Virus record (IMG/VR): IMGVR_UViG_3300027747_002579
Coordinates: 1 to 64,000 of that record
From: a virus
Length of the DNA: 64,000 nucleotides
Strand: one strand, 5' to 3'
Part shown: in pieces, positions 4,144 through 64,000 of the stretch
Layout of the letters: every line of letters starts with the position of its first letter
How positions within the stretch are numbered: position 1 is the first letter of the stretch
Notes under the pieces: model-generated
What the model saw: the letters and a program-made list of their open reading frames with translations, nothing else
Databases searched by the model: none
Told to the model about the DNA's origin: nothing
Made by a program: the position numbers and the translations under genes

Positions 4144-6731
4144 TGCCTATAATTAGATATACAAAAGATGCTACGATTAGATATGCCTATCTTAATATAT
4201 TCCCTGACCAATTTAAAACAGACAAAGAGAAGCAAGATGAGAGTTGGGTGAAGAACACAATGGACTATTTTGCAAACAAAGCATATTCTGAATATGTAAA
4301 GAATAGAGATACATTTGTTAAAAACTATGATCTTATTAAAGGGATTCTTCGTCCTGAAGATTTTTATCAAGAACAAGATGTAAAGTCATTTACAGAAATG
4401 TTACAAAGTGATTTGGAACTTCCTGCATATGTTAAACATTATTCAATTATTACAACACCTGTTAATGAGCTTGTGGGAGAGATTTCAAAAAGACCTAACA
4501 CATATTCTATAAAAGCATTTGATGATGATAGCAAGGCAGAAGAGTTGGAATACAAAACACAGCTTCTTCAGGACTACGTAATGAATCAAGTGAAACAAGA
4601 CATTCTGCAGAAAGCAGCAATGAGAGGAGAAGAAATAGACGAGGAGCAGTTGAATCAAATGACAATGGAGCAGGTGAAAGAAGATTTAGATTCTTACACA
4701 TCTGTTGCAGAGAAATGGGCAAATCACATACTTACAGCTACAAAAGCTGAATTCAATCTCAAAGAAAAGAGTGAGGATGCATTTAGAGACATGATGATCA
4801 CTGCTAGAGAATTCTATCACATCTATGAAGATAATTCTAAAACAGGATATAATATAGAAGTGTGCAATCCTAAGAATACATGGTTTCTCACTACGCCTGA
4901 TAGGAAGTATATTTCAGATGTAACAGGTAGAGCACAAGGAGCGTATGCTGCTGGAACAGTGATGGTGATGGAATTGTCTGAAATTATAGAAACATTCCCA
5001 TTCATCACTAAAGAAGAGATAGATCATTTAAGAAGTTCTTTACAAGACTACGGACTTATAAATGTGAGAGAGTCTAATTTGGGAAACCCTAATGCCACTC
5101 CTGGAACAGACTCTGTACAATACGACACCTATGATCCTCTTGTGCTTCGTACAAGAATGATTATTGAATCAGAAATGAAAGAGAACAATGATGGACTAAA
5201 AGACTTTTTAGGACTCACATCAAATGTTTCCTCATTTGGATACAAATATGTTGTTGTAAGAGCTTATTGGATTTCAAAAAAGAAAATAGGGAAGCTTATA
5301 TTCTTAGATGAAATGGGAAATGAACAATCAATATTAGTTGATGAGAGTTACAAAAGTAACACCATTCCTACACAACAGTCTTTAGAATGGGGATGGGTGA
5401 ATCAATGGTATGAAGGAGTGAAGATAGGACCAGACATCTATCACATCAAACCTTACAAGCTTCTTCCATACTGTCCTATTATAGGACTTACACATGAAGT
5501 GAAGAACACAGAAGCGAAGTCTTTAGTAGACTTAATGAAACCTTTTCAGGTGATATACAATGTTTGTATGAATCAACTGTTCAAACTTCTTGAGAAAGAA
5601 ATAGGAAAGGTTTATTTAACATCAATTAGACACATTCCTGTTCCAAAAGACGGAGATGCACAAGATGCTCTTGATATGTGGGAGTTGGAAGCAAGAAATC
5701 GAGGAGTGGTATTTATTGATGACTCTCCAGAAAATCTAAAAGCACCATCTTCTTTCAACCAGTTCAGAGACATTGATTTAACAAGAACACAAGAAATACA
5801 ATCTCGTTACACTCTTGCACAACAAATGAAGAATGAGTGTTGGGAATTGATAGGTATGTCTAAACAGAGAATGGGAAGTATTTCTGCATCAGAATCTGCT
5901 ACAGGAACAAATGCTGCTCTTACACAAAGTTATTCTCAAACAGAACCTCTTTTTGTAGCTCATGAATATGTATTAGGACAACTCTATCAAGCTGTTATTG
6001 ATGCTTCTCTCTATGTAGAAAGCAAAAAGCCTCAATCAACAATTTCATACATTACATCTAAAGGAGAATCAGCATTTGTAGAAGTGAATGGTACAGATTT
6101 GAGATTTAGAGATTTGAAAGTGTTTGCTACAAATAGACCTGAAGATAAGAAGATGTTTGAAGAGATTAGACAATTGTCTCAAGCTGTTATACAGAATGGT
6201 GGATCATTGTACGACATTATAGAATTGTATTCTACAGATTCTGTACGTCAAATGAAGAAGGTGTTTAAGACATTGAAAGATAGACAAGAGCAAATGCAAG
6301 ACCAACAACAACAAATGCAACAACAGCAGCAACAAGCTCAACAAGAACAAGCTCAAGCTCAATTGGCACAACAACAACAACAACATGAAGAGCAAATAGC
6401 TCATGATGACTATCAAAAACAACTTGATAGACTTTCTAAAGAGAAGATTGCAATTATTTCAGCAACAGGATATGGTAATGTTGCAGCAGAAGATGTTGAC
6501 CAGAACGCTGTTCCAGACGTATTAGAAATGAGTAAGCTTTCTCACGAGCAGGAAAAGGCTGCAAAAGATTATCAGTTGAAAATGCAAGACATTCAATTAA
6601 AGAATAAACAATCAAACGATAAGATGGCTTTAGAAAGAGAGAAGCTTCAAGTGGCAAGAGAAAATCAAAAGAATGATTTAGAGATTGCTAGAACAAATGC
6701 AAAGAACAGAGCATCAAAGAGTAAGAAATAG
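4143..6731 (+). CDS. Portal protein
   Basis: 862 aa, TAATG-coupled to TerL, helical with Gln-rich coiled-coil C-terminus; crAss-like gene order. Confidence 0.88.
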   Translation: MPIIRYTKDATIRYAYLNIFPDQFKTDKEKQDESWVKNTMDYFANKAYSEYVKNRDTFVKNYDLIKGILRPEDFYQEQDVKSFTEMLQSDLELPAYVKHYSIITTPVNELVGEISKRPNTYSIKAFDDDSKAEELEYKTQLLQDYVMNQVKQDILQKAAMRGEEIDEEQLNQMTMEQVKEDLDSYTSVAEKWANHILTATKAEFNLKEKSEDAFRDMMITAREFYHIYEDNSKTGYNIEVCNPKNTWFLTTPDRKYISDVTGRAQGAYAAGTVMVMELSEIIETFPFITKEEIDHLRSSLQDYGLINVRESNLGNPNATPGTDSVQYDTYDPLVLRTRMIIESEMKENNDGLKDFLGLTSNVSSFGYKYVVVRAYWISKKKIGKLIFLDEMGNEQSILVDESYKSNTIPTQQSLEWGWVNQWYEGVKIGPDIYHIKPYKLLPYCPIIGLTHEVKNTEAKSLVDLMKPFQVIYNVCMNQLFKLLEKEIGKVYLTSIRHIPVPKDGDAQDALDMWELEARNRGVVFIDDSPENLKAPSSFNQFRDIDLTRTQEIQSRYTLAQQMKNECWELIGMSKQRMGSISASESATGTNAALTQSYSQTEPLFVAHEYVLGQLYQAVIDASLYVESKKPQSTISYITSKGESAFVEVNGTDLRFRDLKVFATNRPEDKKMFEEIRQLSQAVIQNGGSLYDIIELYSTDSVRQMKKVFKTLKDRQEQMQDQQQQMQQQQQQAQQEQAQAQLAQQQQQHEEQIAHDDYQKQLDRLSKEKIAIISATGYGNVAAEDVDQNAVPDVLEMSKLSHEQEKAAKDYQLKMQDIQLKNKQSNDKMALEREKLQVARENQKNDLEIARTNAKNRASKSKK
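6286..6390 (+). repeat. CAA-rich poly-Gln low-complexity tract in portal
   Basis: QEQMQDQQQQMQQQQQQAQQEQAQAQLAQQQQQ. Confidence 0.8.
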
Positions 6732-8102: not shown

Positions 8103-9656
8103 ATGGCAATTTCAACAATTCCTGGAGTTACTGGCTTTACATATGCCAGAGTGGCTTCAATGGACAAAAGAGCGGTGGGCAAGCTTACTGATGCTAACCA
8201 CTTAGAAAGTTTTCACTCTACAGAACCTGCAGACTATGATAAGAAAATCATCAGTCTTTACACACAGAGTTCTTTGTATTCTAACGATTTCTTGGACATG
8301 ATTAACAAGTCCACTCCTTTTTATATTGATAATAACAGTGATGCTTGGAAATGGGACATTCAAGTTCCTTACAAGTTTCCTAAAATTATCGATATTCCTA
8401 CAGCAACTTCCAATCTTACAAAACCTGGTATCGATGGTCAAGAATTTTCTCTTGTTCTTGATACTAATGAGTTCTCTAAGAATGCAATTGTATCTGTAGG
8501 CACTCGTCAGTATGGTCCTCGTTTCTACGTAGTTAAAGATCCTCTTCCTTGGAATGCTGGATATTTGTATTCATTCACTCTTGTGTCTGATAACCCTACA
8601 GTGGATTTTGTTAGTTCTACATTCCTTCAGACAGGTATTGAACTTGAATTGATTGACGCTGCAATTGGCGAATTTGATCAAGACTTGTTAGGACTTCCTC
8701 GTTTGGGTGAGAAAATCACTATGTTTGAATCTTTAGGATCAGCATATGGTTATGAGCACAAAATCACTGAGTGGGCTGATGACAAGATGATGAAAGATGC
8801 TTCTGGTAAAGCTTTGGATATTTTGGTGTATGCTCCTCAACGCAGAAACCAACTTCCTTTAACTCGTAACGATGTTAAATGGGAACCATTCATTGAGTTC
8901 TGGATGCGTAAGTCTATGTTAGAATTGAAAGTGAAGCGTATGATTTGGGCTAAACCAGGTACAGTGAAAACTAATGGTTCTAAGCAAGAATTAAAGCGTA
9001 CATCTGCTGGTGTTTACCACAGAATGAGAAACAACGGTAACTTAGTACAATACAATCGTGGTGAATTCACTGCAAACTTAATCAGAAGTGTATTTGGTGA
9101 TCTTTTCTACAGAAGGGTGGACGTTAAAGACCGTAAGGTGAAAATGTACACCAATGAAGCAGGATTTGACGTTTTCCAACAAGCTTTGAAAACAGATGCT
9201 TTAAATTCAGGACTTACTTTCATGGCAGATAGCGGTAATCGTTACATGCAAGGTGAAGGTCAGCACATCACTTACAACTTTGCGTTTGACTCAATGGTCA
9301 CTCGTGAAACTGGTCGTGTAGAGTTGATTCACTTGAAAGAACTTGATCTTCCACAATCAAATTTAGAATTTGGTCAAAACAAAAAATCCACTCCTGTATT
9401 CATGGTATTTGATGTGTCTCCAATGAGCGATGGTTCAATGGTGAACAACATCAGAGAAGTGAGAATGAAAGGTGCTCCTTCTATGACTTGGGGATATATT
9501 GATGGTACTCGTCACCACTTAGGTTTTGCAAAATCTCAAGGTATGAGTTCTGCTAACAAGTTCCCTGGTTATGAAATTTGGATGAAAGATAGATGCGATG
9601 TATTCATCGAAGATTTATCTCGCACAGTTTTGATCGAAGAAATACCACAGTTCTAA
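8103..9656 (+). CDS. Major capsid protein
   Basis: 517 aa, highly expressed-type codon bias (CGT, GGT, TTC), position, followed by strong hairpins. Confidence 0.88.
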   Translation: MAISTIPGVTGFTYARVASMDKRAVGKLTDANHLESFHSTEPADYDKKIISLYTQSSLYSNDFLDMINKSTPFYIDNNSDAWKWDIQVPYKFPKIIDIPTATSNLTKPGIDGQEFSLVLDTNEFSKNAIVSVGTRQYGPRFYVVKDPLPWNAGYLYSFTLVSDNPTVDFVSSTFLQTGIELELIDAAIGEFDQDLLGLPRLGEKITMFESLGSAYGYEHKITEWADDKMMKDASGKALDILVYAPQRRNQLPLTRNDVKWEPFIEFWMRKSMLELKVKRMIWAKPGTVKTNGSKQELKRTSAGVYHRMRNNGNLVQYNRGEFTANLIRSVFGDLFYRRVDVKDRKVKMYTNEAGFDVFQQALKTDALNSGLTFMADSGNRYMQGEGQHITYNFAFDSMVTRETGRVELIHLKELDLPQSNLEFGQNKKSTPVFMVFDVSPMSDGSMVNNIREVRMKGAPSMTWGYIDGTRHHLGFAKSQGMSSANKFPGYEIWMKDRCDVFIEDLSRTVLIEEIPQF

Positions 9657-9721: not shown

Positions 9722-9762
9722 AAGAAGAATCTCCCCCCACCTCCAAGTGGGGGAGTCTTCTT
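9722..9762 (+). terminator. GC-rich hairpin after capsid gene (partial terminator/stabiliser)
   Basis: AAGAAGA-AT-CTCCCCCCAC loop CTCCAA GTGGGGGAG-TCTTCTT. Confidence 0.65.
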
Positions 9763-9861
9763 ACATACAGAATGAAGAATTAAGGTGATAACTTAATTGC
9801 TATCTCTTCGATGAGGATCATTCTGCAAAAACAAAATAAAAAAAACCAAAACAACTAAATA

Positions 9862-10830
9862 ATGGCAAAGATAGGAAAAATCTCTACGTTAAAGAAAGAG
9901 TATAACAATAGTCAATTGCAAACAATGCAAGGAGGACTTTCTCAAAAAGGTATGACAAGAGTTCCTGGAACAGGAGTGTTCAAGTATCCATATAGAGAAA
10001 TCGATGGTCAATATAGAACAGGATTGAATCCAAATGCTTCATATATTAAACGCATCAGCGATCCTCTTGAGAGAGAATTAGAAATTGAAAGAGTTACCAA
10101 CCTAAAAACAAAACTAGAAGATGCATTAGGAGGAGTGGACTTAGGTCCTCGTTCTACATTCTGGAACAGCGGTCTTAGTGCATCAGAATATGACACTACA
10201 CATGTTCAACCTGTAAAACTTCTAGATGGTGACAACTATTTTGATTTTTCAAACCCTATGTTAGAACTCGCTTTTTCTTGGCTGAGAGTACATCCTACAA
10301 TTGCCAGCTCCTATCAAGCTTGGGAAAGAGGTGAATTTCCTGCTGATACACAATTTTATGTTGTTGATGATGAATTAGAAAGTACAATATTGTTTAAGAA
10401 GAAACAAATTGTAAACAAAGCAATTAGTAAGTTTGATGCGATGGGTCCAGATAAGAAACAAAAAGTTGCAAGACTTTTAGGACTTCCCGTAACATCTGAC
10501 ACAAAAGAAGAAGTGGTTTACAATTTAGTAGATAATCTTCTTAAAGATGTAGAATTTAAAACAGGAAAATATCAAGGACTTTCAACAATAGAAGTTTTTA
10601 CAAGATTTGCTGACATGAAAGAAAATCTTTTACACGTTAGAGACTTAGTAAAACAAGCAGTTCAACATTCCATCTATAGATTGAAACCAAATGGTAAAGT
10701 TTATGAAGGTGAATTTGAGATAGCAAAAGACGAAGATGATTTGATTAAGTTTCTTGTAGATGATAATAATCAAGATGAGCTTCTTACGCTTGAACAGAAA
10801 TTAAAAATGAAAAAACTAGCATCAACATGA
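9862..10830 (+). CDS. Conserved crAss-like capsid-module protein
   Basis: 322 aa directly after MCP, typical of Crassvirales gene order. Confidence 0.6.
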   Translation: MAKIGKISTLKKEYNNSQLQTMQGGLSQKGMTRVPGTGVFKYPYREIDGQYRTGLNPNASYIKRISDPLERELEIERVTNLKTKLEDALGGVDLGPRSTFWNSGLSASEYDTTHVQPVKLLDGDNYFDFSNPMLELAFSWLRVHPTIASSYQAWERGEFPADTQFYVVDDELESTILFKKKQIVNKAISKFDAMGPDKKQKVARLLGLPVTSDTKEEVVYNLVDNLLKDVEFKTGKYQGLSTIEVFTRFADMKENLLHVRDLVKQAVQHSIYRLKPNGKVYEGEFEIAKDEDDLIKFLVDDNNQDELLTLEQKLKMKKLAST

Positions 10831-11585: not shown

Positions 11586-12785
11586 ATGGCAGATTTTTCT
11601 CTAACTACGCTCTTCGTAGTTCCTACAGCCCAAACTTCATTACCTACCACAGGAAGCACTCAAGATTTGACTGCTGGTCAACTTGGTATTTTCACTGATG
11701 CTTATGTTCCAAGTGCAACAGCTGCAACACTTGCTGCTGCTCCTTACATTTATATTGCTCAAGGTAGAGGTAACACCTACTTGCAAGGTTCTAAAAGATC
11801 AGACAAGATTTCTGGTAAGAACAACGCAGGCACTGGAAGAAACGTCACTGAATGGTATAAAGTGAGTGGTATTGCTTATGCTACAACTCAAATCACTAAA
11901 GTGAGTGGATTTAATGTAAAATGTGGAGATGTTGTCACTTTAACATTACGTGCACACTCTTCTTACATTGACACCTTGTATTTCAACGGTTTCACTCGTT
12001 CTGTAACTGTACAAGCTCCTTGTTGCGATTGTGGTGCAAGCGGTTGTGACAATGTTGATGTTCCTGCATTAATTGATCAATTCATTGCAAAACTTACACA
12101 AAAAGCTCCTGGTATCAACCCTGATAACATTAGCTTTAGCACATTCTTCACATTTGCAAGAGTGGGAACTGGTTCTACAGCATATTTGCAAATCACTGGT
12201 AAAGCTCTTACTAAATATGGTGTTCCTTGTGACGTTGCTGCATTCCCTTATGAGTATGACAGAATGTACTTCAGAACATTTGTATATTCAGGTCCTGCAA
12301 CCACTGCTGACTTCATCGTAGCTGACAACTGTAATATCGTTGCCACTGCTACAGTGTTACAACGTGCTTCTTACCCTGCTGGAGGTTCTGACGAAATCAC
12401 TCAACTTGAGAAGAATTATTATTCTTACCAAGCTGGTTATTTAAAGCATCTCTACAGAATGGCTGGATACAATCAAAACTTTGAAAGTTATGTATCTGCT
12501 AACACCACTTATGACACTTATTACATCAGATTTACAGAATACGATAAGAGTGCTTATCAGTGGGGTGATTATATTCCTCAAGAAAGCATGGTGATTATAG
12601 CTGTATTGGCTGGAGGTTCTCTTGCTACAGCAATTGAAGCTGCTTTGGCTGGTGTAACTAGTACATGGGCTGGTCCTTTAGGATTGTACACTGACAACAG
12701 TGCTCCTGCTCCATCAACTACTACTTCTACCACTACCACTGGTACTTCTACCACCACCACTACCACAACCACTTTGATTCCTTAA
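11586..12785 (+). CDS. Auxiliary capsid/decoration protein with C-terminal Thr-rich tail
   Basis: Codon bias like MCP, beta-rich, followed by hairpin; ends PSTTTSTTTTTGTSTTTTTTTTLIP. Confidence 0.7.
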   Translation: MADFSLTTLFVVPTAQTSLPTTGSTQDLTAGQLGIFTDAYVPSATAATLAAAPYIYIAQGRGNTYLQGSKRSDKISGKNNAGTGRNVTEWYKVSGIAYATTQITKVSGFNVKCGDVVTLTLRAHSSYIDTLYFNGFTRSVTVQAPCCDCGASGCDNVDVPALIDQFIAKLTQKAPGINPDNISFSTFFTFARVGTGSTAYLQITGKALTKYGVPCDVAAFPYEYDRMYFRTFVYSGPATTADFIVADNCNIVATATVLQRASYPAGGSDEITQLEKNYYSYQAGYLKHLYRMAGYNQNFESYVSANTTYDTYYIRFTEYDKSAYQWGDYIPQESMVIIAVLAGGSLATAIEAALAGVTSTWAGPLGLYTDNSAPAPSTTTSTTTTGTSTTTTTTTTLIP

Positions 12786-14958: not shown

Positions 14959-15276
14959 ATGTCATGTGTTCCAGGAATGCCTTGCTACACTCAAACTGTA
15001 GTTTATTCTAATGAATGTGATGCTTGTAAACCTCTTACAACATCTGACGATGTGTATTACTCAGCATCGAATCTTCCTAACACAGGAATAAACTTCAAAG
15101 ACTCTCTAACATTGGCTCTACAGAAGATAGATGCAGAATTTGATCCAATTACATTAGCCTCAACAATACTTGCAACAATTGCTACAAACTATCAAACAAA
15201 AGCATTGTTCTGTAACCTTGTAACAAGTTGTGCCACTTTCTCCACCACTACATCTACAACCACCACACATTTATAA
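14959..15276 (+). CDS. Small structural protein with Thr-rich C-terminus
   Basis: N-terminal module shared with 13797 and 57342; ends STTTSTTTTHL. Confidence 0.65.
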   Translation: MSCVPGMPCYTQTVVYSNECDACKPLTTSDDVYYSASNLPNTGINFKDSLTLALQKIDAEFDPITLASTILATIATNYQTKALFCNLVTSCATFSTTTSTTTTHL

Positions 15277-19778: not shown

Positions 19779-22700
19779 ATGGCAGACAACGAACAAGGCA
19801 ATATACGTACAGAATATAGCGTTGCAAGAATAGGCTTGGACATGGACTCTTCTGTTAATCAAATAGTAGAAGGTAAACTCTCGTATGCCCTAAATGCTGC
19901 TCTTGAGAACTTTGATTCAAATTCTATTAATTATCAGAATGAATCAGGTAATGATTTATGTTTAAAGTTTCCTGAAGATTTTCAACTAATTGGTGAACAT
20001 TTCATCAATGAACAAAATAAACACATATTCTTTTTAACCAATCCAAACACAGGAGAAAGTGAAATTGGATATATGGACAATAACGATTGTGTCTATAGAA
20101 CCTATATAAACGCATTCTGTTTAAACTTTAATGTAGATGATCCCATCCATAAAGCTGTACATAAAATAACTAATTGTACAACAGAAATTTATTGGACGGA
20201 TGGCATAAACCCAAGAAGATATTTAGATTTAACCAATCTTCCCTACAAAATACAACCAGGCACAAATGTGTGTGATAATGTTACAACAACAGAAATTGAT
20301 TGTAATAAATTAAAAGTGCAGCCTAATTTTGAGATTCCCTATTTAGATGTGGTGGACATAATTAGTGGAGGAAGCCTAACATCAGGCACATATCAATTTG
20401 CTGTACAATATTGTAATGCTTCAGGAGATGCTTACACGTCTTATTATTCTGTCACCAACCCCACTCCTATTGCAAAAACTCAACTAATATCTGCTGATTT
20501 TAATTACAATGTAGGAAAGTCTATTGTATTAAATGTTTCCAATCTTGATGTTACAGGATATTTTGAATATTATAATATTGCTGTAATTAAGACAGTGAAC
20601 TCTATATCTTCTGTAGAACTAGTGGGTACATATTTTATAGATGATAATTTTAATCAAATCACTTACACAGGACAGAACGTAACACAAATACGTCTCACAA
20701 TAAACGAAATATTCGAAAAGTTTCCTTATTACGATATTGCTCAAGATTTAACAGCTGTACAAGATGTACTTGTATGGGACCAACTCACTTCTATAGACAG
20801 GATAAATTATCAACAGATAGCTAATCAAATTGAACTTGGATGGCAAACATATAGAATTCCTTCTACAGAAAACTATGCTGATGAACTAAACGCAACAAAC
20901 CTAAGAGGCTATCTAAGGGATGAAGTGTACGCATTTGAAATAGTGTTTCTCTTGAAGAACGGAAAACAAACAGATGGATTTCACATCCCTGGAAGAATAC
21001 AAGACTTCAACGAGTTTTCTCAACCAGATGTTCCTAATACAAATGCAGATTTTATTGGAGAACCCTCGTACACGCAAGGAAACGTGGGATATAGCCCTTA
21101 TTGGAAAATATACAATACAGCAAGCGTAACAGCAAATTCTCCTGAATATACAACAGATTCGAACTACAAGGGTCCTTATCAGTATGGTAAGTTTGCATAT
21201 TGGGAATCTACAGAACTATATCCTTGCAACACGTTAGTGTGGGGAGATCTTGCTAACACTCCCATAAGACACCACAAGTTTCCAGACGTAAATATTAGTC
21301 CAATATTTGAGACACCATTTATTGAATTAAATGGAAATGGTACATACAAACTTGCTACAGCAAAAGATGCTATATTTCCAATAGGTGTAAAGATTGATAT
21401 ACAAAGAGTTTCTCAATTAATTTATACATCCTCTCTTACAAAAGAGCAAATAGACAATATTGCAGGATTTAAAATTGTAAGAGGTGATAGAGGTACAAAC
21501 AAGTCAATTGTTGCTAAAGGTATTTTAAGAAACGTTGGTAAATACGAAAGAGAAGGCACCACATATTTGTTTCCCAACTATCCGTACAACGATTTAAGAG
21601 AAGATCCTTTTATATTAAAAAATCCTAATGCTTTTAATTCTGAGTGTAGAACATACAAAATTGTAACAACAACAAAGATTATTGCTGAATACACTGATTG
21701 TTTCACAAACACTGTGAAGACAAAAGAAATTCCAGCACGTACTACAGAATACATATGTTCATTAACTGTCCCTGTTAGAAGACCTTCTGAAGGAATAGCT
21801 ACAGTGGATTTAATTAAGTTTTCTTCTTATAGACTCACAAGTGTTATTTCTGCAACATTTAGTTATATTGATGCTATTACAGAAGCAGCAACTTCTATAA
21901 ATGTAACATCAGCTACACCAAAGGTGGTGAATGTTAAGCTAGATACAGTGCCTACATTTCTTTATGGAGAAGGAGGATTTACAATTTCTCTATTGAGTAT
22001 AAACATAAACATGTATTGCTATCCCACTGCTCTTAAAGCATTTGATAGTGATGATAGTAAATACAGACATGTATTTAATTCTCCAGACACATCTTTTGGT
22101 CAACCTTTCTTAGGAGATGTATTAAAACTTGAAAGTGTCATATTTGGAAAAGGTTCTGCTCATTTTGTAGAAGTGAAGAAGCATGCTCTTTACAAACTCC
22201 TTTCTAGAGAAGCACAAATAGATGCTCTTAACAGTAGTAGAGATCTTGGTAACATCACTTCTCCGTTTAATCCTGCAGCAATGTTTGCTGCTTATCAATC
22301 GTATTTAACTATTTACATTAATGGTATAACGAGAAGAAACTTTGCTTATTCGTATAACTCAATAGCAAGTTATGACTATGCTTCTTCTATAGAGAATAAT
22401 GTAGGTGTTAAACAGAGAGAATTAGATATTGCTCAATACATATTTCCAGGTGTACAGTCAGTTAATGACACATACAATATTAACAACTATCAAAGAGAAA
22501 CTTCTGTTTATTTAAAAACAGCAGCTACAAAAGTTCCTCTCCCTTTCCCAAACAAAACTCCCTCTCTTCTTCTTCCAGGTAATATAAGTGCTGTAACAGA
22601 TAATTCAAGAAGTACAATTTCTCAACAAGGAAATTGCTCAAAACCTAATGAACAATTCTCAATAGACACAGTGTGTTATTATGCCTCATTGAAAAATCAA

Positions 22701-24953
22701 TTTATTAATCAATGGGGACAGATTTATTCATACGATACAATTGATACAGGATTTCAAAGAAATATTGAAATTGATAACATTATAAATGGACAATCTTCTA
22801 CAGCAACAATATTTGGAGGAGATACATTCATTAACAGATTTGCATTTAAAACAAAGCTTCCATTCTTTATTGACAATAGAGTGAATGCTCCAGATGACAG
22901 TGACATATTCTATGATGAAATAGGAAACGTTGCCTATCCTCAATATTGGTATTCTTCAAGAAGTATATTAAATGACTATCAAGGACTTGGTGACGATTTT
23001 GCCACCAACATGAAGAATATTATTTCTACAAAAGCACATTATTTTGATTGTCCTAACAATCAACTTCCTGCTCCTGATAGCACTGCCAATCCACCAATAG
23101 TAAACATTGACAGAACTTTCTATGATGGAAAGATGTATTTGTTTGCTTATGGTATTCCGTCATTCTATTGCGAATCTTCTATTAATGTTGACCTTAGACA
23201 AGCGTTCAATGACAGAGAAGGAGACTTCTATCCTCACGTTTCTACAGGAATTCCTGATAACTGGTTACAAGAATCCTTTGTATCCATCCAACAAGACAAT
23301 ACATATTTCTATAATACAACATTCTCTAAACAGAATAAAGAAAACTATTTCTCTCATCTTCCAATAAATTGGACAGAGCAATTGTGTTACACACATTTTC
23401 CATTTAGAACAATTTATTCTGATAGACAACAAAGCTTTTCTGACAATAGAATAAACAGCTGGCTCATCTATAGACCAATTTCTAAGTTTGATTTCCCTCA
23501 AAACTATGGTAAGCTTACATCTTTAGATGGTATACAAAATAGAGCCATTCTTGCAAGATTTGAAAATAAGTCTTTACTTTATGGTACACTTCTAACAATC
23601 AATACATCAAATCCTCAAGCTGCGTACATGGGTAATGATACATTATTCCAATCATCACCTCCTGTTGATTTTGCAGAAACAGATCTTGGATATGTAGGAA
23701 GTCAGCACAAGATGTTATTAAAGATTCCTCAAGGGCAACTCACTGTAGATGCTAAAAGAGGGCAAGTGTTTTTGATTCAAGGTAATCAAGCAACAGATAT
23801 TTCTGCTCCAGGTTCTGGAATGAATAGATTTTTTACAGACCATCTTGCGTTTGAAATATTGAGATATTTTCCTGATGTAGATGTAGACAATCACTTTAAA
23901 TCAATAGGACTACACGGTGTGTACGATTCTAAGTTTGACAGAGTGATTCTAACAAAGCTGGACTACCTCCCCCTCAACCCAAACATAAAATACGATGCTT
24001 CTACAGATGAGTTTTACATCAATAAGATAGTAAACAATACAACAATAAAAATAATTGTCTATCTATCAGATAACACTTATTTTTGCAATAAGTCATGGAC
24101 AGTTTCTTACAGTGTAAATAACAAAAGTTGGATTTCTTTTCATTCCTATATTCCAAATTGGTATGTAGCAGAAAATAACTTTTACTATTCAGGAATAAAT
24201 GGAAGTTGTGATTTAGATGTTATTGCTGTACAACAAATAACAACTACGTCAACAACATCCACAACAACAACAAGAACGTCTACCACATCTTCTACAACAA
24301 CAACACAAATTCCAATAAATTGTACATTAATAGGAACATCTGTGTACCAAGCTCCTTACAATTGTCAATTAATAGGAACAGCTGTCTACAGCACCTATCC
24401 AAATTGTACACTTGCAGGAACAGCAGTTTATTCAGCATTCCCTGATTGTAGACTAGCAGGACAAGCTGTGTATTCAAATGGCACCACCACAACAACATCT
24501 ACATCATCTACATCAACAACAACAATTCCTACCACCACCACTACATCTACCACCACATCAACAACAACTACTAAACCTATTACAACCACTACATCTACAA
24601 CGTCAACTACTACCACAGCAGCTCCTACAACCACCACTAGTACAACAAGTTCTACAACCACTACCACTACTACGCAGCCACCTACAACAACCACAACAAC
24701 ATCTACTACCAGCACTACAACCACTCAAGCACCTACCACTACTACATCAACAACAACATCTACAACAAGTACAACTAGCACTACTACATCTACCACAAGC
24801 ACAACAAGCACAACAACATCAACCACCACAACTCGACCTCCAACCACCACTACCACCACTACAACAATTCCTCCATCTTATGCGTTTTGTTTAGGCTATT
24901 CATTAACTAGCGATTTTGCTGCTTGTAATAATTACAGTTCATCATGTTTATAA
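19779..24953 (+). CDS. Tail stabilisation/muzzle protein, N-terminal portion, with mucin-like C-terminal extension
   Basis: IYWTDGINPRRY, GYLRDEVYAF, SWISFHSYIP motifs, then Thr tracts and Cys repeats. Confidence 0.85.
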   Translation: MADNEQGNIRTEYSVARIGLDMDSSVNQIVEGKLSYALNAALENFDSNSINYQNESGNDLCLKFPEDFQLIGEHFINEQNKHIFFLTNPNTGESEIGYMDNNDCVYRTYINAFCLNFNVDDPIHKAVHKITNCTTEIYWTDGINPRRYLDLTNLPYKIQPGTNVCDNVTTTEIDCNKLKVQPNFEIPYLDVVDIISGGSLTSGTYQFAVQYCNASGDAYTSYYSVTNPTPIAKTQLISADFNYNVGKSIVLNVSNLDVTGYFEYYNIAVIKTVNSISSVELVGTYFIDDNFNQITYTGQNVTQIRLTINEIFEKFPYYDIAQDLTAVQDVLVWDQLTSIDRINYQQIANQIELGWQTYRIPSTENYADELNATNLRGYLRDEVYAFEIVFLLKNGKQTDGFHIPGRIQDFNEFSQPDVPNTNADFIGEPSYTQGNVGYSPYWKIYNTASVTANSPEYTTDSNYKGPYQYGKFAYWESTELYPCNTLVWGDLANTPIRHHKFPDVNISPIFETPFIELNGNGTYKLATAKDAIFPIGVKIDIQRVSQLIYTSSLTKEQIDNIAGFKIVRGDRGTNKSIVAKGILRNVGKYEREGTTYLFPNYPYNDLREDPFILKNPNAFNSECRTYKIVTTTKIIAEYTDCFTNTVKTKEIPARTTEYICSLTVPVRRPSEGIATVDLIKFSSYRLTSVISATFSYIDAITEAATSINVTSATPKVVNVKLDTVPTFLYGEGGFTISLLSININMYCYPTALKAFDSDDSKYRHVFNSPDTSFGQPFLGDVLKLESVIFGKGSAHFVEVKKHALYKLLSREAQIDALNSSRDLGNITSPFNPAAMFAAYQSYLTIYINGITRRNFAYSYNSIASYDYASSIENNVGVKQRELDIAQYIFPGVQSVNDTYNINNYQRETSVYLKTAATKVPLPFPNKTPSLLLPGNISAVTDNSRSTISQQGNCSKPNEQFSIDTVCYYASLKNQFINQWGQIYSYDTIDTGFQRNIEIDNIINGQSSTATIFGGDTFINRFAFKTKLPFFIDNRVNAPDDSDIFYDEIGNVAYPQYWYSSRSILNDYQGLGDDFATNMKNIISTKAHYFDCPNNQLPAPDSTANPPIVNIDRTFYDGKMYLFAYGIPSFYCESSINVDLRQAFNDREGDFYPHVSTGIPDNWLQESFVSIQQDNTYFYNTTFSKQNKENYFSHLPINWTEQLCYTHFPFRTIYSDRQQSFSDNRINSWLIYRPISKFDFPQNYGKLTSLDGIQNRAILARFENKSLLYGTLLTINTSNPQAAYMGNDTLFQSSPPVDFAETDLGYVGSQHKMLLKIPQGQLTVDAKRGQVFLIQGNQATDISAPGSGMNRFFTDHLAFEILRYFPDVDVDNHFKSIGLHGVYDSKFDRVILTKLDYLPLNPNIKYDASTDEFYINKIVNNTTIKIIVYLSDNTYFCNKSWTVSYSVNNKSWISFHSYIPNWYVAENNFYYSGINGSCDLDVIAVQQITTTSTTSTTTTRTSTTSSTTTTQIPINCTLIGTSVYQAPYNCQLIGTAVYSTYPNCTLAGTAVYSAFPDCRLAGQAVYSNGTTTTTSTSSTSTTTIPTTTTTSTTTSTTTTKPITTTTSTTSTTTTAAPTTTTSTTSSTTTTTTTQPPTTTTTTSTTSTTTTQAPTTTTSTTTSTTSTTSTTTSTTSTTSTTTSTTTTRPPTTTTTTTTIPPSYAFCLGYSLTSDFAACNNYSSSCL
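24318..24479 (+). repeat. Four tandem 42-nt (14-aa) repeats [ND]CxLxGx[SA]VY
   Basis: Units start at 24318, 24360, 24402, 24444. Confidence 0.9.
24483..24866 (+). repeat. About 128-codon Thr/Ser/Pro mucin-like tract
   Basis: Mixed ACA/ACC/ACT/ACG codons; shorter tract at 24240-24306. Confidence 0.95.
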
Positions 24954-24967
24954 AACTAAAGATATAA

Positions 24968-26020
24968 ATGGCAAATGTTTATTCAAATTGTTCGACATTA
25001 GCAATAGGTTGCAGAATCTTTGACGATCCTGCTCTGCTCACTCCAGCTGCTTTAGGATATTATTCTGATGGCGTAGTTGCATATAATGCAGTGAGAGAAT
25101 CTGGTCAAATATACACAATACTTAATGCAGGATTTACTTGTTCTAATATTCCTGATCCTAATCCAATTATTGTAACCACCACTACATCTACAACAACATC
25201 TACTACTACTAGTAGACCTACCACTACAACTAGCACAACATCAACAACCACATCTACAACTAGTACTTCTACTACAAGTACAACATCTACCACTAGTACA
25301 ACAACGAGTACATCTACATCAACTACTTCCACAACCACTACAGTTGCTCCCGCACAAATTGTAACAAGCGGTTTAATTTATCATCTCGATGCAAATAATG
25401 CCTCAAGCTATACACTAAACGGTTCAACTTGGACAAATTTAGTATCCCCAGGAAGTTCTACAATGTCTCTATCATCTACAACTGGAGGAACAGAAAGCAC
25501 AGGCGGTAAGTATGTTAATTTTGACGGAGTTAGCAGTAAGGGACTTGTATCTAATTACACTTACGGAACAGTTAACACGGTTCAATTTTGGTTTAACCCT
25601 ACAAAAGTGCCCTCACTTTATGGAATTTGGATATCATCAGGTGGAACGGCATATTCATATTCTGCTTATGATTGGGCATTTTTTTCGTATTATCAAACTC
25701 CATATCAATATGAATTTTTAGGCTCTTCAGATAACAGCAAAACAAGAATTACACGTTCTTTATCCTTAAATAATTGGTATTTTATAACTTTGATTAGAGA
25801 TAATGGAACATCAAATCCTTTGCAAGTACAAATTAATGAAGGAACACCAGTTACAGCAACTCAAGGAGCATTTAATAACACTCAACCTAATTTCCTAAGA
25901 ATTAATCAAGATGGAACAGCAGGCTGTAAATTTGGACAAATAATTATGTATAACAGATTACTTACATCTTCTGAAATTACACAAAATTTTAACTTTAATA
26001 AAGCAAAGTATGGATATTAA
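24968..26020 (+). CDS. Virion accessory protein: Cys domain, Thr-rich linker, LamG/concanavalin-like lectin domain
   Basis: IVTSGLIYHLDA...FDG...TVQFWFNP...NNWYFITL...YNRLLTSSEITQNFN; Thr tract about 25175-25342. Confidence 0.8.
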   Translation: MANVYSNCSTLAIGCRIFDDPALLTPAALGYYSDGVVAYNAVRESGQIYTILNAGFTCSNIPDPNPIIVTTTTSTTTSTTTSRPTTTTSTTSTTTSTTSTSTTSTTSTTSTTTSTSTSTTSTTTTVAPAQIVTSGLIYHLDANNASSYTLNGSTWTNLVSPGSSTMSLSSTTGGTESTGGKYVNFDGVSSKGLVSNYTYGTVNTVQFWFNPTKVPSLYGIWISSGGTAYSYSAYDWAFFSYYQTPYQYEFLGSSDNSKTRITRSLSLNNWYFITLIRDNGTSNPLQVQINEGTPVTATQGAFNNTQPNFLRINQDGTAGCKFGQIIMYNRLLTSSEITQNFNFNKAKYGY

Positions 26021-58115: not shown

Positions 58116-59510
58116 ATGCCAAAACAAATAGGATGGAGCAATGAGAGTAATCTCCTCTATCAAATCTCTCAACAAATAACAAGGCTAATAAATGTAACAG
58201 GTACAAATGGTGGAGGGTCTATTACAGGATCTGGTACAACAAATTACATTCCTAAGTGGACATCTTCTTCATCATTGAACAATAGTGTTATTTATCAATC
58301 CTCTACAGGTAATATAGGAATAGGCACTACAACACCTTCTCAAAAATTAGATGTTAATGGTAATGTTACAGCTACATATGTTATTGCAGTTAATGAATTT
58401 TATGGCAGCAGTATTAGAGTGAATGGGTTTTATGCAAACACAATAGCTTATATGCCATTTTACTCAAACATATCTCCTTATGGAGAAATAATGAGGGTAA
58501 ATAATAATGGTTCATTATGGATTAACAGGACAACAGATGATGGATCTGGAGCTAAGTTGCAAGTGAATGGTAATATAAGTACGCCTAATAATATTTCTTC
58601 ATTTTTAAATGCAACAACTTTTACATTAAGTAATACTTACATGGGATATGCTGGTGGTAATATACAATTTGCCAAAAGCGATTATGGAACAAGAACGATG
58701 ACCATTTTTGATTCAACAGGCAATGTTTTAATTGGAAGTGGAACATCAGAAATAAACACAGGATATAAGTTACAAGTTGATGGTGGTTTTATAAGTAGAT
58801 TAGGAGGACCAAGCTTTGCCGTTTTAAATTATATTGGTTCAGCAACTTTATATGGTGGTTATGGTGATTTTATAACAAATACTGATAATTATTTTGTAAG
58901 AGCAGACGGTTTAAATGTAGTTCATAAAATACCTTCTACTAATGGATTTATGCTATTCAACACTTCAACTGGAACTGCTATGAAATTGTTAGATAGTGGT
59001 ACTTTTTTAATCAACAGAACAACAGATGATGGAACAGGTTCAACATTACAAGTGAATGGTGGAATTTCTCAAGCTGGAGCAAATAATTATAATTATTTTG
59101 CATCAAAAGTGTTGATAGGTACAACTACTCCAAGTGCTGGATTAATGACTGTTGCAGGCGATATATACCCTAGTGCAAACAATACGTATGAATTAGGTAA
59201 AACTAATAATTTGTGGTTAGCAATAAATACATCAAATTATGTTAATTATGGTTCTACGAATTCGAATTATTTTGCATCTGAAGGACATAAATTTAATGTT
59301 GATTTTGTTTCACCAGTATTAACAATTACAAGTAATAAAAATGTATTAATAGGTACAACAGCAAATAACGGTCGAAAATTAGTAGTAGCTGGACAACAAG
59401 AATGGATAACGACAGTTGGTACTGGTGTACATACAACAAGCGGAAATCACCTTCCTATTTGGGTAAATGGTGTTCAATATTGGTTAGCATTATTAAATCC
59501 TGTAGTATAA
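58116..59510 (+). CDS. Tail fibre protein
   Basis: GNIGIGTTTPSQKLDVNG-type repeats; INRTTDDGxGxxLQVNG twice. Confidence 0.75.
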   Translation: MPKQIGWSNESNLLYQISQQITRLINVTGTNGGGSITGSGTTNYIPKWTSSSSLNNSVIYQSSTGNIGIGTTTPSQKLDVNGNVTATYVIAVNEFYGSSIRVNGFYANTIAYMPFYSNISPYGEIMRVNNNGSLWINRTTDDGSGAKLQVNGNISTPNNISSFLNATTFTLSNTYMGYAGGNIQFAKSDYGTRTMTIFDSTGNVLIGSGTSEINTGYKLQVDGGFISRLGGPSFAVLNYIGSATLYGGYGDFITNTDNYFVRADGLNVVHKIPSTNGFMLFNTSTGTAMKLLDSGTFLINRTTDDGTGSTLQVNGGISQAGANNYNYFASKVLIGTTTPSAGLMTVAGDIYPSANNTYELGKTNNLWLAINTSNYVNYGSTNSNYFASEGHKFNVDFVSPVLTITSNKNVLIGTTANNGRKLVVAGQQEWITTVGTGVHTTSGNHLPIWVNGVQYWLALLNPVV

Positions 59511-61379: not shown

Positions 61380-61922
61380 ATGGCAAGAAAAATATTTGTA
61401 TCTTCAGGACATGGCGGAATTGATAAAGGTGCTTCTTCAGGACAATTTATTGAAAGAGATCTTACAATAGAATTTAGAAATCTATTAACATTAGAGCTTC
61501 AAAAACTAGGAGTGAAATGGTCTACAGATGCAGACACAAATGCTCTAAAAGAAACATTAGATTTCATAAAGGGGAAGTTTCTTCCTTCTGACATTCTATT
61601 AGACATTCATTTTAATGCAGGTGGTGGAGAAGGTGTAGAAGTGGTAATTCCTAACGTATCTTCTGCATTTGAACAAAGACTTGCTCAATCAATTGTTGAT
61701 ACAATAAGTAAATTGACAGGGTTTAAAAAGAGACAAGGAGGTGTGATTCCTGAATCTTCTACAGCACGAAAAACTCTAGGATGGATGAGACCTAATTCTG
61801 AAAACATATTAATAGAAATGTGTTTTATTGATAACAAATCAGACATGCTCACCTACCAATTAAACAAGGTTAAGATTGCTAAAGAAGTGGCAAAGGTAAT
61901 TTCTGATTTTACAAAATTATAA
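61380..61922 (+). CDS. N-acetylmuramoyl-L-alanine amidase (Amidase_3) endolysin
   Basis: SSGHGG, ERDLT, DIHFNA, ILIEMCFIDN. Confidence 0.9.
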   Translation: MARKIFVSSGHGGIDKGASSGQFIERDLTIEFRNLLTLELQKLGVKWSTDADTNALKETLDFIKGKFLPSDILLDIHFNAGGGEGVEVVIPNVSSAFEQRLAQSIVDTISKLTGFKKRQGGVIPESSTARKTLGWMRPNSENILIEMCFIDNKSDMLTYQLNKVKIAKEVAKVISDFTKL

Positions 61923-61946: not shown

Positions 61947-62081
61947 ATGATCAGTAAACAAATAGGCTGGAGTCAAGAAGCAAATCTTCTCTACGAAATT
62001 AGCAACAAGCTGGAAAGATTAATACAAGTGAGTGGAAGTCCTTCAACAACTACATCCACCACCACTACGACAGCACCTTAA
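61947..62081 (+). CDS. 44-aa microprotein: fibre-type N-terminal helix plus Thr tail (not in ORF track)
   Basis: MISKQIGWSQEANLLYEISNKLERLIQVSGSPSTTTSTTTTTAP*; paralog of 58116 N-terminus. Confidence 0.8.
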   Translation: MISKQIGWSQEANLLYEISNKLERLIQVSGSPSTTTSTTTTTAP

Positions 62082-62104
62082 CAAACATAAACCAACAACT
62101 ACAT

Positions 62105-62695
62105 ATGAAAGAGTTAGTATTTATTTGCGAAACATGGAAGCGTTGTCCAGGGTATGAATCTTCTTATGAAGTTAGTACACTTGGGAATGTTAGAAGTATT
62201 GACAGAATATCTGGAAATAGACGTGGAGTGATTAAGAGTAAATTACTAAAATCTTATATTAATAAAAAAGGATATTTAGAAGTAAGATTGTATAAAAATT
62301 CTAAGCACATTTTTAAAATAATACATAGATTGATTGCTAAAGCTTTTTTACCAAATGAAAACAAACCACAAGTCAATCATATAGATGGTAATAAGTTAAA
62401 CAATAGAGTAGACAATCTTCAATGGGTTGATAATTCAGAAAATCAACTACATGCTTATAAATTAGGATTACAACCTAGTAGAGCTGGTGAGAACAATGTT
62501 AAAGCAAAAATTAAAGATAAAGATGTAACTTTATTAAAAGAGTTATATAACTCTGGTAAAACTATTGCTGAAGTTTCTAATATAACAAAAATAAGTGTAA
62601 GTTCAATTAGAGCAATTATTTATGGAAATACTTGGAAATCTAATACAACAGCAATTATAAAAAGAGATGATAGATTTAAACCAACAACAGTATGA
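62105..62695 (+). mobile_element. NUMOD4-HNH homing endonuclease gene
   Basis: WKRCPGYESSYEVSTLGNVRS (NUMOD4), IHRLIAKAF, VNHIDGNKLNNRVDNLQW. Confidence 0.92.
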
Positions 62696-63702
62696 TTAAA
62701 GAATTAAAGTTTTTGTGCTCGCAGCCAGATGATTCGTATTATAAATGGCAAACACATCTATGGCTAGAGAGTCTTAAGAAAATAGGAAAGAGTGAACAAG
62801 CTATTGTATTAGTTTACACTCCCGCAGAAAGGCAATACAATACAGAATGGGACGAATTAAAAGAACTCTATCCAGAAGCAACATTTGGTTTCTATAGAGA
62901 TGAAGATGGTGTATCAGACTTTATTCCAATTTATATTCCAGTGTTGCGTCCTTACACATTAATGAGATGGTTCAAAGATCATCCAGAGATGAAAGACAAA
63001 GCCATTTTCTATTGTGATTGTGACATTGTGTTTACAGAGAATTTCAACATCGATGCTTACATAAATGATGATGTGTGTTATCTGTCTGACACAAACTCTT
63101 ACATAAACGCTTCATATTTTGATAGCAAGAAAAATGATGTTCTACAGGACAAACAAGAACTATACAACACAAGAGACGTATTAAACGAACTCACATCTCT
63201 TATAGGAATAAATAGACAAATAGCTGAAGCAAATAATTTACATTCAGGAGGAGCACAATATCTTCTGAAGAACATAGATTATAAGTTTTGGCAGAAAGTG
63301 TTTAGTGATTGTATTCTTATTAGAAGATTTTTGTTAAACATTAACGGACAATTCTTTGAGAGTGAGAACAAAGGATTTCAAAGTTGGTGTGCTGACATGT
63401 GGGCTGTCTTGTGGAACCTTTGGTATAAAGGATACACAACACAAGTGGTGAAAGAAATGGACTTTGCATGGGCAACTGACCATATATCAAGAATGGATTC
63501 TATAGGACTGTTTCATAATGCAGGAATATCCAATACAGATATGGGACATTACAAAGCATTCTATAAAGGAAAATATATACATGGTGTCTCTCCATTCAGT
63601 GATTTAGATGAGGTGTATAACAACGAAGAGAGTAAGAAGTATTGTACACATTATTATGTCAGTCAGTTGGTAGAATTGAAAAACAAATACAATTTAAAAT
63701 AA
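62692..63702 (+). CDS. GT-A fold glycosyltransferase resembling peptide O-glycosyltransferases (GT96/GT95-like)
   Basis: YYKWQ, YIPVLRPY..RWF, DxD in FYCDCDIVF, GGAQY, WCADMW, FHNAG. Confidence 0.7.
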   Translation: MIKELKFLCSQPDDSYYKWQTHLWLESLKKIGKSEQAIVLVYTPAERQYNTEWDELKELYPEATFGFYRDEDGVSDFIPIYIPVLRPYTLMRWFKDHPEMKDKAIFYCDCDIVFTENFNIDAYINDDVCYLSDTNSYINASYFDSKKNDVLQDKQELYNTRDVLNELTSLIGINRQIAEANNLHSGGAQYLLKNIDYKFWQKVFSDCILIRRFLLNINGQFFESENKGFQSWCADMWAVLWNLWYKGYTTQVVKEMDFAWATDHISRMDSIGLFHNAGISNTDMGHYKAFYKGKYIHGVSPFSDLDEVYNNEESKKYCTHYYVSQLVELKNKYNLK

Positions 63703-63707
63703 ATAAA

Positions 63708-64000
63708 ATGCAATTAGACAACAAATTAAAAGCGTTCGTTAGATATGATGGATCAGAAAGAATCGTTCCTGGTTCTCTCATTCTTAGAAAAAACAAGCCT
63801 AAAGTGGGCAATTGGAAGCAAGTGTCTTCAAACTATTGTTGTGATGGCATAGGTATTAATTACACTCCTGGTAGCTTAACTATTGCAAATGTTGATTTGA
63901 CATTAACGTGCTCTAGTGGAAAATCTATTGTTGTAAATACAAATACAGCATCCACTAACATGGTGACATTGTTAGCAGCATTAAACACTTCTGCAGGATA
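63708..64000 (+). CDS. Hypothetical (probable structural) protein, truncated by window end
   Basis: MQLDNKLKAFVRYDGSERIVPGSLILRKNKPKVGNWK...YCC; open to window end. Confidence 0.65.
   Translation, partial: MQLDNKLKAFVRYDGSERIVPGSLILRKNKPKVGNWKQVSSNYCCDGIGINYTPGSLTIANVDLTLTCSSGKSIVVNTNTASTNMVTLLAALNTSAG

Follow-up and report, generated by a model that had tools for sequence, protein, structure and literature searches.

Which molecules does a glycosyltransferase modify when its gene lies among the late structural genes of a phage? This question is raised by a gene at positions 62692-63702 (plus strand) of the viral DNA analysed here, a stretch of 64,000 nucleotides (nt) that we call the window and that comprises positions 1-64,000 of the IMG/VR record IMGVR_UViG_3300027747_002579 (full record 107,671 bp, 33% G+C). 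By fold, by motifs and by the lack of a transmembrane segment, the gene encodes a soluble glycosyltransferase (GT) of the GT-A type with 336 amino acids (aa) that belongs to PHROG 4417 and is a candidate protein O-glycosyltransferase. We consider it likely that this enzyme O-glycosylates threonine (Thr)-rich tags on virion proteins of the very phage that encodes it. The original prediction for this locus, made from its letters alone, had proposed such virion O-glycosylation together with membership in a plant enzyme family; the first part appears well supported by the fold of the enzyme, by gene order in its relatives and by the way enzyme and tags come and go together, whereas the plant family label was not confirmed.

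A glycosyltransferase of an unnamed, mostly phage-borne family

The open reading frame (ORF) is intact, and all the motifs from which a glycosyltransferase had been read were verified in it: YYKWQ (residues 16-20), YIPVLRPY (residues 81-88) followed by TLMR-WF, the DxD motif D109-C110-D111 (plus strand, nt 63016-63024), GGAQY (residues 186-190) and WCADMW (residues 232-237). In an alignment of 75 diverse relatives with 29-94% identity, both aspartates of the DxD motif, the presumed site of metal and nucleotide-sugar binding, are invariant together with Y81, Y137, Q230, F258, H275 and K292, and G186, G187, Q189 and D235 are conserved in at least 90% of the sequences. As far as sequences can tell, these motifs are not a product of chance. 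The invariant H275 sits in an HxxG motif and may represent the downstream histidine metal site of GT8-type enzymes.

The protein matches PHROG 4417, a family of unknown function, over almost its whole length (E 3.4e-52; residues 5-319 against positions 1-286 of the 293-position profile). No Pfam family was found for it in a protein search at E<=1, and searches of PDB sequences with the protein itself and with the profile of the 75 relatives returned nothing meaningful. Relatives are nonetheless plentiful, with more than 2,000 metagenomic sequences at 90% clustering and 774 cluster representatives at 50%, and a tblastn search of 50,697 phage records found homologues in 77 annotated phage genomes, where they are listed as "hypothetical protein" or bear no functional annotation among the matches listed. 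Some relatives are fused to GT2, GT4, GT6, DXD sugar-binding, GlcNAc-transferase, methyltransferase or radical-SAM domains, as one would expect if the enzyme took part in a glycan pathway of several steps. We conclude that it is a genuine glycosyltransferase, whose family is mostly borne by phages and is as yet unnamed.

Neither a signal peptide nor a transmembrane segment is present, the maximum 19-residue hydropathy being 0.89, and a beta strand starts as early as residue 5. Since no segment is hydrophobic, the protein should be a soluble cytoplasmic enzyme, as would be expected of one that acts in the cytoplasm, where virions are assembled.

An AlphaFold (AF2) model built on the alignment of the 75 relatives reached a predicted local distance difference test score (pLDDT) of 97.5 and a predicted template modelling score (pTM) of 0.94. 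It has the single Rossmann-like alpha/beta/alpha nucleotide-binding domain that is characteristic of the GT-A fold, with D109-C-D111 placed after a beta strand at residues 104-108, and the protein is accordingly modelled as a GT-A glycosyltransferase. Foldseek retrieved 216 PDB chains at E<=1e-3, all of them GT-A glycosyltransferases among the matches listed, and VIA-align found 94 chains at Z>=8 that are, among the matches listed, GT-A transferases or related nucleotidyltransferases. The top scores went to glycogenin (Z 14.1), the catalytic domain of UGGT (Z 14.0) and the Skp1-glycan alpha-galactosyltransferase (Z 13.9); LgtC, WbbM and GlyE (Z 12.9) were other close matches, and A64R of chlorovirus PBCV-1 and TarP scored 11.0 and 9.3, respectively. 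Among viral predicted structures, the closest were uncharacterised phage proteins, followed by GT8-like enzymes of giant viruses.

The best structural neighbours are GT8 enzymes (Z 12.6-14.1), so that the nearest solved structures, judged from the model, appear to be retaining GT8-type enzymes, several of which glycosylate proteins. GlyE, for example, glycosylates the pneumococcal serine-rich-repeat protein PsrP. With glycogenin, the Skp1-glycan alpha-galactosyltransferase and GlyE, the phage enzyme shares a structural match of Z 12.9-14.1 over ~210-240 residues, the DxD motif and a soluble cytoplasmic location, and the known members of this type act on protein-linked acceptors. It differs from them by a sequence identity of only 6-12% and by extra helical insertions (336 aa versus about 250-280), and the Pfam hidden Markov model (HMM) for GT8, PF01501, matched neither the protein (E<=1) nor the genome (E<=0.1), although it did match control genomes.

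By ordered motifs ascribed to SERGT1 (YFDWQ / YPAINKP / LDADM / WISEMY), the original prediction had instead placed the enzyme with the plant peptidyl-serine alpha-galactosyltransferase SERGT1 (GT96) and the hydroxyproline O-arabinosyltransferases HPAT (GT95), a label that is so far unproven. What likeness there is lies in the GT-A fold with its DxD motif and in the fact that the plant enzymes glycosylate hydroxyl residues in low-complexity peptides. Plant HPAT/SERGT enzymes are, however, anchored in the Golgi membrane and the phage enzyme has no membrane anchor, its nearest solved structures are of the GT8 type, and the Pfam HPAT model (PF23452) matched neither the phage protein (E<=1) nor any of its 75 relatives (E<=0.01). 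In 12 bacterial genomes with relatives, the same model found nothing at the GT loci and reached at best 15.7 bits elsewhere, against a cut-off of 23.9; it gave no match in the phage's own genome either, but control genomes were equally silent. The PF23452 label is likewise missing from long fused forms and from the relatives of a family member found in a deltaproteobacterium, though such precomputed labels may predate the model. As a lead only, a protein-language-model and structure atlas puts the PF23452 label on 10-58% of the members of neighbouring clusters, and a distant relationship of the enzyme to the HPAT family is possible.

Thr-rich tracts accompany the enzyme in its own phage and in close relatives

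The window consists of a single long late operon on the plus strand that includes crAss-type terminase, portal and major capsid genes and also encodes giant virion proteins, among them the product of a 4,744-aa ORF. Because its terminase is only 25-30% identical to those of gut Crassvirales, compared to 33% for Cellulophaga phages phi4:1 and phi17:2 and 40% for Leptolyngbya phage Lbo-JY46, the phage is by this measure a distant environmental crAss-like virus outside the gut Crassvirales families. Among contigs in bacterial bins, the nearest ones with the GT gene belong to metagenome-assembled genomes (MAGs) of Sediminibacterium, Cytophagales and Saprospiraceae and give a hint of a Bacteroidota host.

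Five proteins encoded on the plus strand of this operon are candidate acceptors. The one closest to the enzyme is a 44-aa microprotein (61947-62081) composed of a fibre-type N-terminal segment and the C-terminal tail SPSTTTSTTTTTAP. The others belong to the structural module: a 399-aa protein (11586-12785) with a C-terminal poly-Thr tail (nt 12708-12779), a 105-aa protein (14959-15276) ending in ...STTTSTTTTHL, a 1,724-aa virion structural protein (19779-24953; phrog_37948 "virion structural protein", E 3e-107) with a mucin-like Thr-rich region of ~210 aa (nt 24234-24872), and a 350-aa protein (24968-26020) with a serine/Thr tract of ~100 aa (nt 25169-25483). The Thr tracts are written in mixed ACA, ACT and ACC codons, which implies that selection has acted on the encoded protein sequence and preserved it.

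Over its first ~28 residues, the microprotein shows 64% identity (E 1e-11) to the N-terminus of a fibre-like protein of 464 aa that is encoded a little upstream on the same strand (58116-59510). More generally, a segment of ~28 aa with the pattern MAIPSRQIGWxxxxNLLWxISKQLE is common to fibre-like proteins of 145-464 aa and to Thr-tailed microproteins of ~45 aa, and from these sequences it looks like a portable module for docking or oligomerisation.

As the original prediction had described, the GT gene lies in the late region and is separated from the Thr-tailed microprotein by nothing but a NUMOD4/HNH homing endonuclease gene (62105-62695, plus strand), which we place outside the glycosylation system. 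This gene is an insertion, since in HNH-free relatives the Thr-tailed microprotein directly abuts the GT. The gene order in the latter is fibre-like protein, microprotein of ~45 aa (fibre N-terminus plus poly-Thr tail), GT and a protein of the "LKAYVRFDGSGRVV" family, and in three relatives (G001, G006 and G007) this last partner is a protein of 58-80 aa that itself ends in a poly-Thr tail. We quantified this arrangement in 80 IMG/VR loci of the close clade, with GTs 58-65% identical to that of the window: a Thr-tract ORF lies at most 1 kb upstream of the GT in 70/73 loci and at most 1 kb downstream in 68/74, and in the other 1-kb bins, out to ±9-10 kb, such ORFs occur in 0-11%.

The same pairing in distant phages

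Homologues in annotated phages of Gram-positive hosts are 26-30% identical to the enzyme and lie inside the structural module. The gene comes immediately after that of the major capsid protein in bIL285 and in Enterococcus phage Planchet, and one gene later in Lactobacillus phage iLp84. In Enterococcus phage phiFL1A and Staphylococcus phage PT1-1 it is the next gene after that of the major tail or tail tube protein, and in FA88 it directly follows the unannotated ORF18, itself just upstream of the tape measure gene. Together, the distant phages considered here have hosts in Enterococcus, Lactobacillus, Lactococcus, Clostridium, Staphylococcus and Chryseobacterium.

In six of the eight phages examined, poly-Thr tails or tracts occur near the GT, on capsid, tail, decoration or neighbouring proteins. 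Tails are found on the capsid and tail proteins of phiFL1A, on the capsid protein, a 125-aa protein and the tail protein of iLp84, on ORF11 and ORF18 of FA88, on a 369-aa protein and the tail tube of PT1-1, and on the tail protein of bIL285, and Chryseobacterium phage MA9V-3 has two proteins with internal Thr-rich tracts, one of them encoded directly upstream of the GT. In a seventh phage, Planchet (OX422066.1, ~9760-9890), the capsid gene has at its end a poly-Thr extension of ~45 aa that is encoded in the -1 frame and is reached via a canonical C CCA AAA slippery heptamer. The Lactococcus prophage bIL285 similarly encodes NDKTTTTTTRHD in frame after the TAA stop of its capsid gene (5944-5985). 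Both of these recoding-dependent tails are located just upstream of the GT homologue and would, as read from the genomes, tag only a fraction of the capsid subunits.

Phages that share a tail protein with and without the enzyme allow a more direct comparison. The phiFL1A-type major tail protein is found in 11 phages, two of which (phiFL1A and R3.3) have the GT and carry Thr tails on both capsid and tail protein. The remaining nine (five Streptococcus prophages, SPP1, SplendidRed, phiJL-1 and ATCC8014, the last two from the same genus as R3.3) have no GT by whole-genome profile search and no poly-Thr tail, and their tail proteins stop no more than ~20 residues past a conserved PGETTGDY motif. 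Across all genomes compared, runs of at least six Thr codons are present in 22/23 GT-positive but only 1/16 GT-negative genomes (Fisher p = 1e-8; with every lineage entered a single time, 0.001-0.009). Among crAss-like phages, 14 GT-positive records have 5-42 Thr runs each, and in seven GT-negative genomes of 99-151 kb, from crAss-like phages or their nearest relatives, not a single run of six Thr codons is present. Four GT-less crAss-like contigs were excluded from the statistics because they probably end before the expected GT locus (the distance from portal to GT is ~58.5 kb).

A proposed route to glycan-coated virions

We therefore propose the following course of events. Late in infection, a soluble, cytoplasmic, metal-dependent and probably retaining GT-A enzyme would bind a nucleotide-sugar of the host through its DxD-metal site and move the sugar to Thr hydroxyls. 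These would belong to disordered poly-Thr tags on freshly synthesised structural proteins and mini-fibres, and the transfer would probably retain the configuration, as it does in the GT8-like enzymes that resemble it in structure. The tags would be glycosylated before or during assembly, so that the virion would assemble with a glycan coat. In the phage studied here, the likely acceptors would be the 44-aa Thr-tailed "mini-fibre" and the Thr tracts of at least four structural-module proteins. What the analysis itself shows is the fold, the invariant DxD motif, the lack of a membrane anchor, the synteny with Thr-tailed genes and the co-variation of GT and tails; we infer which acceptor and donor sugar are used, that the linkage is to oxygen and the chemistry retaining, and any biological role (shielding, adhesion or stability).

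For a broader version of this proposal we see about even chances: soluble retaining GT-A enzymes, forming a dedicated family without a name and akin to the bacterial glycosyltransferases of ribosomally synthesised and post-translationally modified peptides (RiPPs), would recognise a portable poly-Thr tag on capsid, tail tube, decoration, fibre and mini-fibre proteins. The mini-fibres would borrow from the fibre the N-terminus that docks on the virion, and in some phages the tag would be put on only a fraction of the capsid subunits by -1 frameshifting or stop-codon readthrough.

If the proposal is true, virion glycan coats would be widespread and indeed common among phages that infect Bacteroidota and Firmicutes. 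They would be found on the types of Enterococcus and Staphylococcus phages that are candidates for therapy, on the Lactococcus and Lactobacillus phages that disturb dairy fermentations, and on abundant environmental crAss-like phages. This would bear on the immunogenicity of phages, their adherence to mucus and other surfaces, particle stability and host recognition, it would explain what a PHROG family of several thousand proteins does, and it would provide a compact pair of enzyme and tag for glycoengineering. The prediction is directly testable because several GT-positive phages are in culture.

Counter-evidence and alternative explanations

Several observations speak against virion proteins as the acceptors. 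The homologue of Lactobacillus phage SAC12B lies outside the structural module, and there is no poly-Thr run in the 136 kb of this genome. In the window itself, the major capsid protein (8103-9656) has no Thr tract, and the virion status of three of the Thr-tract proteins follows from gene position only: a search of the Thr-tract proteins against the PDB, including the virion chains of crAss001, gave no matches, leaving them without relatives among solved structures. The sampled genomes are phylogenetically non-independent, and since GT and tails often share one mobile structural module, part of their co-variation could be linkage. Finally, the functional evidence for the GT family is one of association throughout.

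The nature of the acceptor can also be judged from chromosomal relatives of the enzyme in Chitinophaga, Sphingobacterium, Pedobacter, Mucilaginibacter and Elizabethkingia, which are two-domain proteins of 450-830 aa. A Peptidase_C39-ABC-type exporter is encoded upstream of them in three of the four loci inspected (Pfam-confirmed in two), LanC-like proteins and an extra GT2 are found nearby, and one locus (L205) has a 73-aa ORF with a double-glycine-like leader (...NVFGG/EV...). This is the layout of bacteriocin and RiPP clusters and suggests that the family acts on ribosomally made peptides or proteins, which counts in favour of our proposal. It also fits an alternative in which the phage enzyme would act solely on the small Thr-tailed peptides beside it and produce free or secreted RiPP- or glycocin-like glycopeptides that are not part of the virion, and the ORFs immediately next to the GT in the crAss-like clade do encode peptides of 37-80 aa. 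We find this unlikely, because the N-terminal ~28 residues that the microprotein has in common with fibre proteins suggest docking to the virion, because the phage copies of the GT come without exporter, leader peptidase or double-glycine leader, and because in siphophages it is the major capsid and tail tube proteins that bear the Thr tails. The resemblance to the glycosyltransferases of glycocins and other RiPPs (SunS or GccA type) also has its limits: clusters of the bacterial homologues share C39-ABC exporters and LanC-like proteins with them, but these homologues are uncharacterised proteins of two domains without Thr tracts nearby at their loci. The glycocin transferases known so far, moreover, belong to GT2.

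Prophage-encoded TarP and Gtr-type enzymes modify surface polymers of the host. By analogy, the enzyme could modify wall teichoic acid, capsule, lipopolysaccharide or O-antigen, in infected cells or in lysogens, in order to block superinfection or mask receptors, with the Thr tails as mere linkers. Such GT-A enzymes of phages do exist, as the structural match to TarP recalls, several GT-positive phages such as phiFL1A and bIL285 are temperate, and the position of the SAC12B homologue would fit. Yet the enzyme is soluble and has no membrane segment, its gene lies inside late structural operons and away from lysogeny modules, and it is also found in large phages that are probably strictly lytic. 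Modification of host polymers further leaves the co-variation of Thr tails and GT, and the more than 90% of loci flanked by Thr tracts, unexplained, so that we deem it quite unlikely.

Could enzyme and tails merely travel together in an exchangeable module, without any biochemical connection and with a GT whose function is unrelated or lost? The GT is usually within a few kb of the tailed genes, module exchange is common, and phiFL1A and R3.3 have GTs with 64% identity. On the other hand, the catalytic residues are invariant across the family, so selection acts on the GT; podo-, sipho- and crAss-like phages of Bacteroidota and Firmicutes show the pairing with acceptors that are not homologous to one another (capsid, tail tube and decoration proteins, fibres and microproteins); and Thr tracts as far as 51 kb from the GT obey it in the genome studied here. 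Hitch-hiking is thus a very improbable account.

The DNA glucosyltransferases of T4 have a GT-B fold, unlike the GT-A model of the enzyme described here. Although DNA glucosylation is the best known role of phage GTs (PMC12619734), glycosylation of hydroxymethylated bases for restriction evasion is scarcely credible for this family, which occurs within the head and tail operons of small temperate siphophages of 35-40 kb and whose co-variation with Thr tails it would not explain, all the more so since ten Pfam-scanned ORFs between 63.5 and 79.4 kb of the genome, a stretch that encodes a dUTPase, RecA, PhoH and an intein-bearing ORF, include no hydroxymethylase, TET/JBP-type or base-modification gene.

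Comparison with known virion glycosylation

To our knowledge, glycosylation of phage particles has been demonstrated experimentally only for a few mycobacteriophages. In PMC11256854 and PMC12619734, which cite the work on these phages (Che8, Rita and others; Freeman et al. 2023), glycans are described at the C-termini of capsid and tail tube proteins and are proposed to form a shield. According to PMC11256854, this glycan shield can alter antibody production and block the binding of antibodies to the capsid, and Maravista, which like Che8 belongs to cluster F1, has its GT genes near the 3' end of the genome.

What the mycobacteriophage system, as described there, has in common with the family studied here are phage-encoded GTs and, in the relatives with Gram-positive hosts, C-terminal tails on capsid and tail tube proteins. 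Such tails occur together with the GT in phiFL1A, R3.3, iLp84, PT1-1, FA88 (ORF11 and ORF18) and bIL285 (tail protein). The crAss-like phage of the window departs from this type in that its tails and tracts are on other structural-module proteins and on a microprotein, not on the major capsid protein. The enzyme family is also a different one, as none of the 77 tblastn-positive records is a Mycobacterium phage, and the GT gene is embedded beside its presumed substrates, in contrast to the position near the 3' end that the source gives for Maravista. The acceptor here would moreover be a near-pure poly-Thr tag, which fibres and microproteins carry as well, and the system is predicted from genomes of phages whose hosts are Bacteroidota and Firmicutes.

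Chlorovirus PBCV-1 A64R and the capsid enzymes of giant viruses offer a second parallel: they are virus-encoded GT-A enzymes, and the known ones glycosylate the major capsid protein of their own virus in the cytoplasm. However, they belong to eukaryotic viruses, make unusual N-linked glycans without any poly-Thr tags, and match the phage enzyme less well in structure than GT8 enzymes do.

A full-text search of the literature retrieved no paper that links poly-Thr tails with a phage glycosyltransferase and none that describes virion glycosylation for crAss-like, Enterococcus, Lactococcus or Lactobacillus phages. The original prediction was thus right, within the searchable literature, that nothing of the kind had been described for Crassvirales, but the system is not crAss-specific: 76 of the 77 annotated homologue-positive genomes come from phages of Gram-positive hosts or from unnamed phage records.

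Neighbouring genes and additional observations

Immediately around the GT, the operon contains an Amidase_3 endolysin gene (61380-61922) upstream of microprotein and GT and, downstream on the plus strand, the start of a 133-aa ORF of the "LKAxVRxDGSxRxV" family (63708-64000, extending to 64109) that is without a poly-Thr run. This is the conserved downstream partner of the GT whose counterparts in G001, G006 and G007 have the poly-Thr tails mentioned above.

The HNH gene is missing at this site in most relatives, and an HNH is found at the same site in the relative G008 (C1:16000-20000). Only two copies of the 12-mer TAAACCAACAAC exist in the window, one immediately ahead of the HNH start and the other immediately ahead of the GT start (0.02 expected by chance). 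The N-termini of the two proteins are alike as well (MKELVFIC for the HNH and MIKELKFLC for the GT), and the G008 HNH begins with MKDLKFIC, which is the GT N-terminus of HNH-free relatives. It would appear that the GT gene received the HNH insertion at its 5' end (62085-62720).

Downstream of the GT, G008 and G009 encode ORFs of 53-84 aa that consist almost wholly of repeats rich in Thr, glutamate and isoleucine, for example ...TTTTSTTETTTEAPTTSTSTTDTTTETTTDTTTIV, and an ORF of 35-36 aa with a poly-Thr tail at its end. ORF callers would seem to miss a whole set of Thr-tagged microproteins in this clade.

Among the bacterial homologues, four RiPP-like clusters of Bacteroidota (L197, L199, L205 and L222, from Chitinophaga, Sphingobacterium, Elizabethkingia and a Bacteroides MAG) have a GT homologue of 450-710 aa and are, by their gene content, candidates for a new class of glycosylated peptides.

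At 2.9 kb past the end of the window, a 289-aa ORF (genome 66924-67793, minus strand) probably encodes a second GT-A glycosyltransferase. It starts with an N-terminal beta domain of ~70 aa, and in its atlas model (pTM 0.75) residues 73-289 align with GT2-like clusters at template modelling scores of 0.63-0.66. No Pfam or PHROG match was found for it, and a single-sequence fold reached a pLDDT of only 32. The ORF is present in 1/17 close relatives and thus an accessory gene. Further on, in the replication arm, a 952-aa ORF (genome 70816-73674, minus strand) bears an intein with a LAGLIDADG endonuclease domain.

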